A model generated the notes under the pieces. It saw only the letters and a list, made by a program, of their open reading frames with translations, was not told where the DNA came from and searched no databases. 64,000 nt of DNA, taken from assembly GCF_055900595.2 (NCBI RefSeq), contig NZ_CM148325.1; one strand, written 5' to 3'. Positions 24,428-24,492 of the stretch are shown here, piece after piece (position 1 is the first letter of the stretch; each line of letters opens with the position of its first letter). The position numbers were made by a program, and so were the translations under genes.

Positions 24428-24492
24428 GACGCGTCAGCGTCGCATCAGGCAAAAGATGTCGGATGCGGCGTGAACGCCTTATCCGACCTACG
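24428..24492. repeat. REP/BIME-like palindromic elements between argD and yhfK
   Basis: GACGCGTCAGCGTCGCATCAGGC and GTCGGATGCGGCGTGAACGCCTTATCCGACCTAC resemble REP consensus in opposite orientations. Confidence 0.6.

Follow-up and report, generated by a model that had tools for sequence, protein, structure and literature searches.

The window, i.e. the whole stretch of 64,000 nucleotides that was analysed, carries two convergent genes, argD and yhfK, separated by a short spacer. argD is an ORF of 406 aa on the plus strand (23203-24423), annotated under this name in NZ_CP098223.1 and in E. coli K-12, and the ORF list places its TAA stop codon at 24421-24423. yhfK lies on the minus strand (24516-26618) and is identified from its ORF and from the annotation of the same two genomes. 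The spacer between the two stop codons is 92 nt long (24424-24515) and consists, on the plus strand, of ATAAGACGCGTCAGCGTCGCATCAGGCA, the linker AAAGA, TGTCGGATGCGGCGTGAACGCCTTATCCGACCTAC and then 24 nt of unique sequence (24492-24515) that diverges strongly between lineages. Two REP units of opposite orientation, 5 nt apart, thus occupy 68 of the 92 nt. We place the limits of the element at 24424 and 24491; the earlier note had drawn it at 24428-24492, about 4 nt off on the left and 1 nt off on the right. It had also described two opposed palindromes: the opposite orientation stands, but the left unit, of z2 type, is not a full palindrome, its GTAG and one half of the outer stem being absent.

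The right half of the element is a complete y-type REP (24457-24491, minus strand), which reads TGTCGGATGCGGCGTGAACGCCTTATCCGACCTAC on the plus strand. Its GTAG, on the minus strand at 24491-24488, lies immediately 5' of the palindrome and 24 nt from the yhfK stop codon. In the palindrome, an outer stem of 7 bp and an inner stem of 4 bp are separated by the AA/GC mismatch bulge, and a UUCA loop closes the structure. The two mismatches that separate it from the y consensus, C>T and G>A, face each other in the stem and form a compensated change from C-G to T-A that leaves it intact. The predicted hairpin has a folding energy of -19.2 kcal/mol (z = -5.7) on the plus strand and of -18.8 kcal/mol (z = -4.2) on the minus strand, where its structure is (((((((..((((....))))..))))))). 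When the 64 kb were scanned on both strands, this site matched the y consensus with 2 mismatches over 34-35 positions and the runner-up had 11, and no match to the y consensus appeared in 100 shuffles of the window that preserved its dinucleotides. Chance palindromes are ruled out by this shuffle control and by the consensus scans. The exact 37-mer of the y region has further occurrences in 5422 records.

The left half (24424-24451, plus strand, GTAG-first orientation) reads ATAAGACGCGTCAGCGTCGCATCAGGCA and corresponds to consensus positions 10-37 of the 37 positions of z2. It differs from z2 by one mismatch over the 27-28 nt retained, and by 8 mismatches over 36-37 positions when the full-length consensus is considered. 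The first 9 nt of z2 (GTAG and GCCTG) are missing, and with them the 5' arm of the outer stem; the remnant begins at the first base past the argD stop codon, so that the 3'UTR of argD starts inside it. The lost part, GTAGGCCTG, which is kept by the orthologs of a cryptic lineage labelled E. coli (L006) and of E. albertii (L007), is replaced here by the end of argD (GGGGCGTAA). Alone, the remnant can form only the inner 5-bp hairpin (-9.1 kcal/mol). It aligns with the z2 copies of the K-12 REPtron and with the full copies of L006 and L007. The deletion ends, written TAAA/ATGGGCGTAGGCCTGA/TAAG, share 1-2 nt of microhomology; a RayT-mediated origin of the truncation was rejected, as these ends do not lie at the C/T cleavage sites described in PMC3333891. 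Between the two halves, the linker (24452-24456), read directly from the sequence, is of the S type and joins them head to head; on the minus strand it becomes UCUUU and, with its flanking bases, gives AUCUUUUG directly after the y hairpin.

REP and BIME elements have been described since the 1980s and are present in about 600-700 copies per E. coli genome. The y, z1 and z2 consensus sequences used here were verified in three ways: in a sister genome, which is the complete genome of E. coli Z0117EC0005 (NZ_CP098223.1, 99.3-99.8% identical to the window), against the BIMEs that flank rayT in K-12, and by copy number. The sister genome contains zero-mismatch copies of y and z1 and one-mismatch copies of z2, with 20 y/z1/z2 copies (11 of them y) in 98 kb elsewhere on the chromosome. 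The BIMEs flanking K-12 rayT, which are experimentally cleaved substrates of TnpA-REP (PMC3333891), align base by base with the window element. Each half was found at 40 or more places per genome in 5425 of the 5426 complete E. coli genomes, and for the z2 half the minimum was at least 14 and the median at least 40 places per E. coli genome. The identity proposed in the earlier note, REP/BIME-type repeats, is therefore borne out by near-consensus matches (2/35 mismatches for y, one in the 28-nt remnant of z2), by the K-12 rayT alignment, by this copy number and by a match, at threshold level, to the Rfam family naRNA4. The pair between argD and yhfK is real but ordinary, and belongs to an already known kind of element. 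That no REP is annotated at this locus is uninformative because the K-12 RefSeq annotation examined has no repeat_region features at all.

The REP types differ in length (35 nt for y, 29 nt for z1 and 37 nt for z2) and combine in two main arrangements (PMC8266576, PMC3333891): BIME-1 associates z1 and y through a long L linker, often with an IHF site, and BIME-2 associates y with an inverse z2 through a short S linker, usually in tandem arrays. Considering both composition and arrangement, the argD-yhfK element has the sequence characters of a single BIME-2-type unit (REPIN), with y and z2 inverted head to head around a 5-nt linker. It shares with the BIME-2 elements of the K-12 rayT region (the REPtron) the REP types, the inverted head-to-head arrangement and the short linker; the retained parts are nearly identical, both are extragenic and located at gene 3' ends, and rayT is intact in the sister genome (NZ_CP098223.1 1011463-1011960). 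It differs from them by its linker (5 nt instead of 12, i.e. 7 nt shorter), by a z2 that lacks GTAG and 5 nt of stem, and by its isolation: one unit only was found in the spacer and in the window, without tandem copies and without s, l or r flanking motifs. With BIME-1 (also called RIP or RIB), the element has in common a y REP with an inverted Z-type REP in single copy, but its Z unit is a long z2 and not the 29-nt z1, for which the best match in the window has at least 10 mismatches over 29 positions, and its 5-nt linker is devoid of the IHF consensus motif (WATCAANNNNTTR), which was found nowhere in the spacer.

A third relative is naRNA4 (CssrE), which is one y+z2 pair of the 12-unit REP325 located between yjdM and yjdN. 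The Rfam model (RF02564) matches the minus strand at 24417-24488 over its full length (model positions 1-77 of 77), in structure as well as in sequence, with the y hairpin, the linker and the z2 hairpin in the same order. The score in the local search (59.5 bits, E = 1.3e-10) equals the gathering score of 59.5, and the match is absent from the gathering run on the whole window. The window copy also departs from naRNA4 in having a linker 6 nt shorter than that of the model and a broken outer stem in the second hairpin, and it stands isolated between convergent genes whereas the naRNA4 copies lie inside an operon. These resemblances bring in the possibility that the element works at the level of DNA or of the nucleoid, either as a BIME-2 gyrase site or as the source of an HU-binding, naRNA4-like RNA bridging REP sites, and we judge it very improbable. 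Binding of DNA gyrase to REP/BIMEs has been reported (cited in PMC3333891), the combination of y, z2 and a short linker is that of BIME-2, and the match does cover the whole naRNA4 model; against this, the unit is single and not part of a tandem BIME-2 array, its z2 is truncated, its score only reaches the family threshold, and no compaction or REP-REP contacts attributable to REP325/naRNA4 were seen in a recent study that disputes the nucleoid role of the family (bioRxiv 10.64898/2026.03.23.713779).

The pair had been presented as the only recognisable repeat-family element of the window, which holds for everything that was searched: Hamming-distance scans of the 64 kb returned no further y, z1 or z2 REP within 25% mismatches, and no ERIC/IRU core was found in the window. 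In Rfam, the only gathering-level match of the window is Alpha_RBS (RF00140) at 55753-55864 on the plus strand (102.7 bits). Alpha_RBS is where S4 binds to regulate the alpha ribosomal-protein operon.

Comparison with K-12 revealed several other differences in the region. Around 6105-6115, the window has an empty BIME site where K-12 carries, in reverse complement (NC_000913.3 3512487-3512616), a segment of 130 nt in which a perfect z1 iREP and a perfect y REP stand tail to tail with a linker of 27 nt between them. This segment is bordered by a terminator-like hairpin (AAAAAAACCGGGTTTCCCCGGTTT) on one side and by the trpS stop codon on the other, and is entirely absent from the window; the two alleles form a clean filled/empty pair for studying REP insertion. 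At 13670-13689, about 20 nt replace the frlABCDR (fructoselysine) operon of K-12 (about 5.2 kb), which is followed in K-12 by a z2-like REP just after frlR, and at 43317-45300 the chiA gene and the cryptic gsp type II secretion operon are absent, the prepilin-peptidase gene being all that is left between bfr and rpsJ in the sister genome. No REP was found at the window junctions where frl and chiA are missing. The bfd-bfr segment is about 77-79% identical to K-12 with flanks at about 97%, which suggests a divergent or imported allele. Elsewhere in the sister genome, a four-fold tandem y-z1 BIME array (NZ_CP098223.1 1088912-1089290, or 18913-19291 of the extracted L089 sequence) is overlapped by a RefSeq 'hypothetical protein' (WP_072000926.1, 1088925-1089290), very probably a false ORF composed of REP sequence.

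The history of the element was followed across Escherichia, the window sharing about 96% identity with K-12, 92.5% with L006 and 90.9% with E. albertii. A full y+z2 pair occupies the argD-yhfK spacer in both L006 and E. albertii, with the z2 GTAGG (or a mutated CCAGG) located 7 nt past the argD stop codon. In the window allele, about 16 nt corresponding to the z2 GTAG and outer-stem arm have been lost. Strain Z30 has the left junction of the window and a further loss of 15 nt (CCTACGATTTGCTCC) that removes the GTAG/CTAC of y. K-12 combines the Z30-type loss with a deletion of 11 nt inside z2; indeed, the MG1655 ortholog (NC_000913.3 3488894-3488959) shares with the window the locus, the ancestral element and the left junction with the argD stop codon, but lacks the 11 nt of z2 and the 15 nt including the y CTAC/GTAG, and does not match naRNA4. 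Along this series, from the full pairs through the window and Z30 to K-12, the naRNA4 score falls from 68.9 and 61.1 to 59.5, 44.2 and no match.

In complete E. coli genomes, a 341-nt query spanning the locus was matched at 95% or more in 13 records, at 90-95% in 210 and at 80-90% in 5219; among 30 evenly spaced records, the alignment length was 341 nt in one, 326 nt in one and 314-315 nt in 27. K-12-type strains, with the further deletions, represent about 96% of complete E. coli genomes, and the full L006-type allele was found in none of 5425. As judged from these alignments, the element predates the split between E. coli and E. albertii and has been inherited vertically while eroding by small deletions; most E. 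coli lost the y GTAG and 11 nt inside z2 after the window-type loss, and the window thus holds a rare, less eroded allele. As for the genome itself, the argD-yhfK piece is found at 99% or more in only 12 of about 5400 chromosomes, which makes the source an E. coli lineage that is rare and branches deeply, and that may be a cryptic clade.

Outside Escherichia, the argD-yhfK spacers of Enterobacter, Kosakonia, Kluyvera and others are about 15-30 nt long and REP-free, so the element is dispensable. Citrobacter genomes (L008-L010 and L038, about 3718-3830) have REP pairs of their own species type in the same spacer, arranged tail to tail (CTAC...GTAG), which implies that the argD-yhfK gap was occupied independently.

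The two halves of the element have not decayed alike. The y REP shows no difference from its L006 ortholog over 35 positions when the fourfold-degenerate sites of argD differ at 0.288 per site (P = 7e-6), and 3 differences out of 35 from E. albertii when these sites differ at 0.262 per site (P = 0.009). The y half has thus diverged far less than neutral sites would and is, in this sense, maintained. Its hairpin is kept in every allele examined: in K-12, two changes convert base pairs into G-U wobble pairs and leave the stem unbroken. Gene conversion between copies could account for this conservation just as selection for the hairpin could.

This is where a serious alternative to a role as RNA barrier and attenuator has to be weighed, namely that the pair is a neutral relic: a decaying selfish or once-mobile repeat, of no effect on argD or yhfK, whose y half is kept by gene conversion or RayT-linked homogenisation with the other copies, which number in the hundreds. 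We consider this possible, though somewhat doubtful. The stepwise deletions in different lineages, the loss of the GTAG in about 96% of complete E. coli, the REP-free spacers of related genera and the presence or absence of other regional BIMEs between K-12 and the window are all in its favour. It accounts less well for a y hairpin that survives in all alleles examined, with only wobble-preserving changes in K-12, and that is unchanged relative to L006 where about 10 differences would be expected. At the same time, the successive deletions undergone by most E. coli speak against the whole pair being under strong selection.

As regards mobility, for the E. coli TnpA-REP the GTAG is essential and tolerates no mutation (PMC8266576). 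The y copy, on the minus strand, is alone in keeping both the GTAG and the hairpin needed by TnpA-REP/RayT and would be a plausible substrate, while the z2 copy should be inert for mobility. A rayT gene is carried by 3574 of the 5426 complete E. coli genomes. Throughout the window the GC skew of the plus strand is positive, from which the minus strand would be the leading-strand template.

At the RNA level, the whole of 24424-24492 folds at -29.7 kcal/mol, and the two units folded separately sum to -28.3 kcal/mol. The argD mRNA would accordingly carry either one z2:y hairpin of 59 nt, which begins immediately past the stop codon, or a separate hairpin for each unit, and the yhfK mRNA would carry the y hairpin (-18.8 kcal/mol) 28 nt past its stop codon, followed by AUCUUUUG. 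Considering both transcripts, these hairpins would most likely block 3'-to-5' exonucleases and would also act, most likely, as weak and partly Rho-assisted attenuators of convergent read-through.

The immediate proximity of the structure to the argD stop codon leads to another explanation, in which a REP lying no more than 15 nt past the stop codon would stall the terminating ribosome and cause mRNA cleavage and tmRNA action, and thereby lower ArgD. An effect of stop-proximal REPs on translation is credited to Liang, Rudd and Deutscher 2015, as cited in PMC12306157. In the window, base pairing is predicted to begin at 24424 in the z2:y hairpin and at 24428 in the z2 inner hairpin, which puts structure 0-4 nt past the stop codon, and the spacing varies between alleles (in L006 and E. 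albertii the GTAG is 7 nt away from the stop codon, and in K-12 the y hairpin is about 25 nt away). The z2 remnant, however, cannot form a full REP hairpin of its own, and pairing z2 with y gains only about 1.4 kcal/mol over the separate hairpins; such a brake on ArgD would, in our opinion, be unlikely.

The earlier note had suggested that the repeats act as mRNA stabilisers or terminators, a role usually assigned to REPs and in keeping with published work. The terminator part was examined in its strongest form, that of a dedicated bidirectional intrinsic terminator serving the convergent argD and yhfK transcripts. Several features recall one: the y hairpin is GC-rich and folds at about -19 kcal/mol in both orientations, it is followed on the minus strand by AUCUUUUG, the z2 inner hairpin is followed on the same strand by UUAUUUAC, and 78 REPs lie inside predicted bidirectional terminators in K-12. 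On the plus strand, however, there is no U-tract past the hairpin (CCUACGAUUUGC), the y hairpin being followed by CCUACGAU, and most REPs have no poly-U tracts. A simple terminator scan picked out no hairpin but the weak inner one of z2, with TTATTTAC, on the minus strand, and the 3 terminator-like sites of the region barely exceed the mean of 1.2 (sd 1.1) in shuffled sequences.

Direct 3'-end data come from K-12, whose allele is more eroded than that of the window. PMC7815308 has there no curated Term-seq 3' end in or near the argD-yhfK spacer, and places a region of Rho termination (Rho score 4.33) at 3489306 (+), antisense to argD. Reading from yhfK, this region comes about 350 nt after the spacer, so that transcripts in this direction pass the more eroded BIME of K-12, which tells against intrinsic termination in the spacer; the missing 3' end is equally in line with a neutral relic. 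A literature search returned no paper joining argD, yhfK and terminator, and in the supplement of the 2026 preprint (bioRxiv 10.64898/2026.03.23.713779) argD and yhfK appear in the differential-expression table only, not in the REP table. A strong terminator role for the pair is not supported, and we regard a dedicated intrinsic terminator as improbable.

The same preprint (bioRxiv 10.64898/2026.03.23.713779) provides the closest points of comparison for a weaker role. REP325 was found to terminate transcription, in part through Rho, and to stabilise the upstream mRNA as well. A REP is present in 207 of 704 convergent gene pairs, and these show higher expression in K-12 RNA-seq, which runs against a neutral relic, while terminal REPs do not lengthen half-life genome-wide, which agrees with one. 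Any effect on the two 3'UTRs would most likely be modest and context-dependent, and a dedicated terminator unlikely. Taken together, we propose with good confidence that the argD-yhfK pair is a single, eroding and ancient BIME-2-type unit, whose hairpins would most likely serve as exonuclease barriers and weak attenuators.

One more REP copy is of little importance alone. The interest of the locus is that it offers a clean series of REP pair decay, from the full pair to the form deprived of the z2 GTAG and then to the doubly and triply deleted forms of most E. coli. If stop-proximal REPs stall ribosomes, such deletions would alter ArgD translation and argD mRNA decay with the coding sequence and the promoter left untouched. 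It is even conceivable, though we think it quite unlikely, that the stepwise erosion forms a natural allelic series retuning ArgD output and that the y REP still recruits RayT on the leading-strand template. More generally, the series indicates that REPINs can persist vertically for a long time while decaying by micro-deletions, the y hairpin outlasting the rest, and it could be used as a natural experiment on the debated effects of REPs on 3'UTRs and translation.
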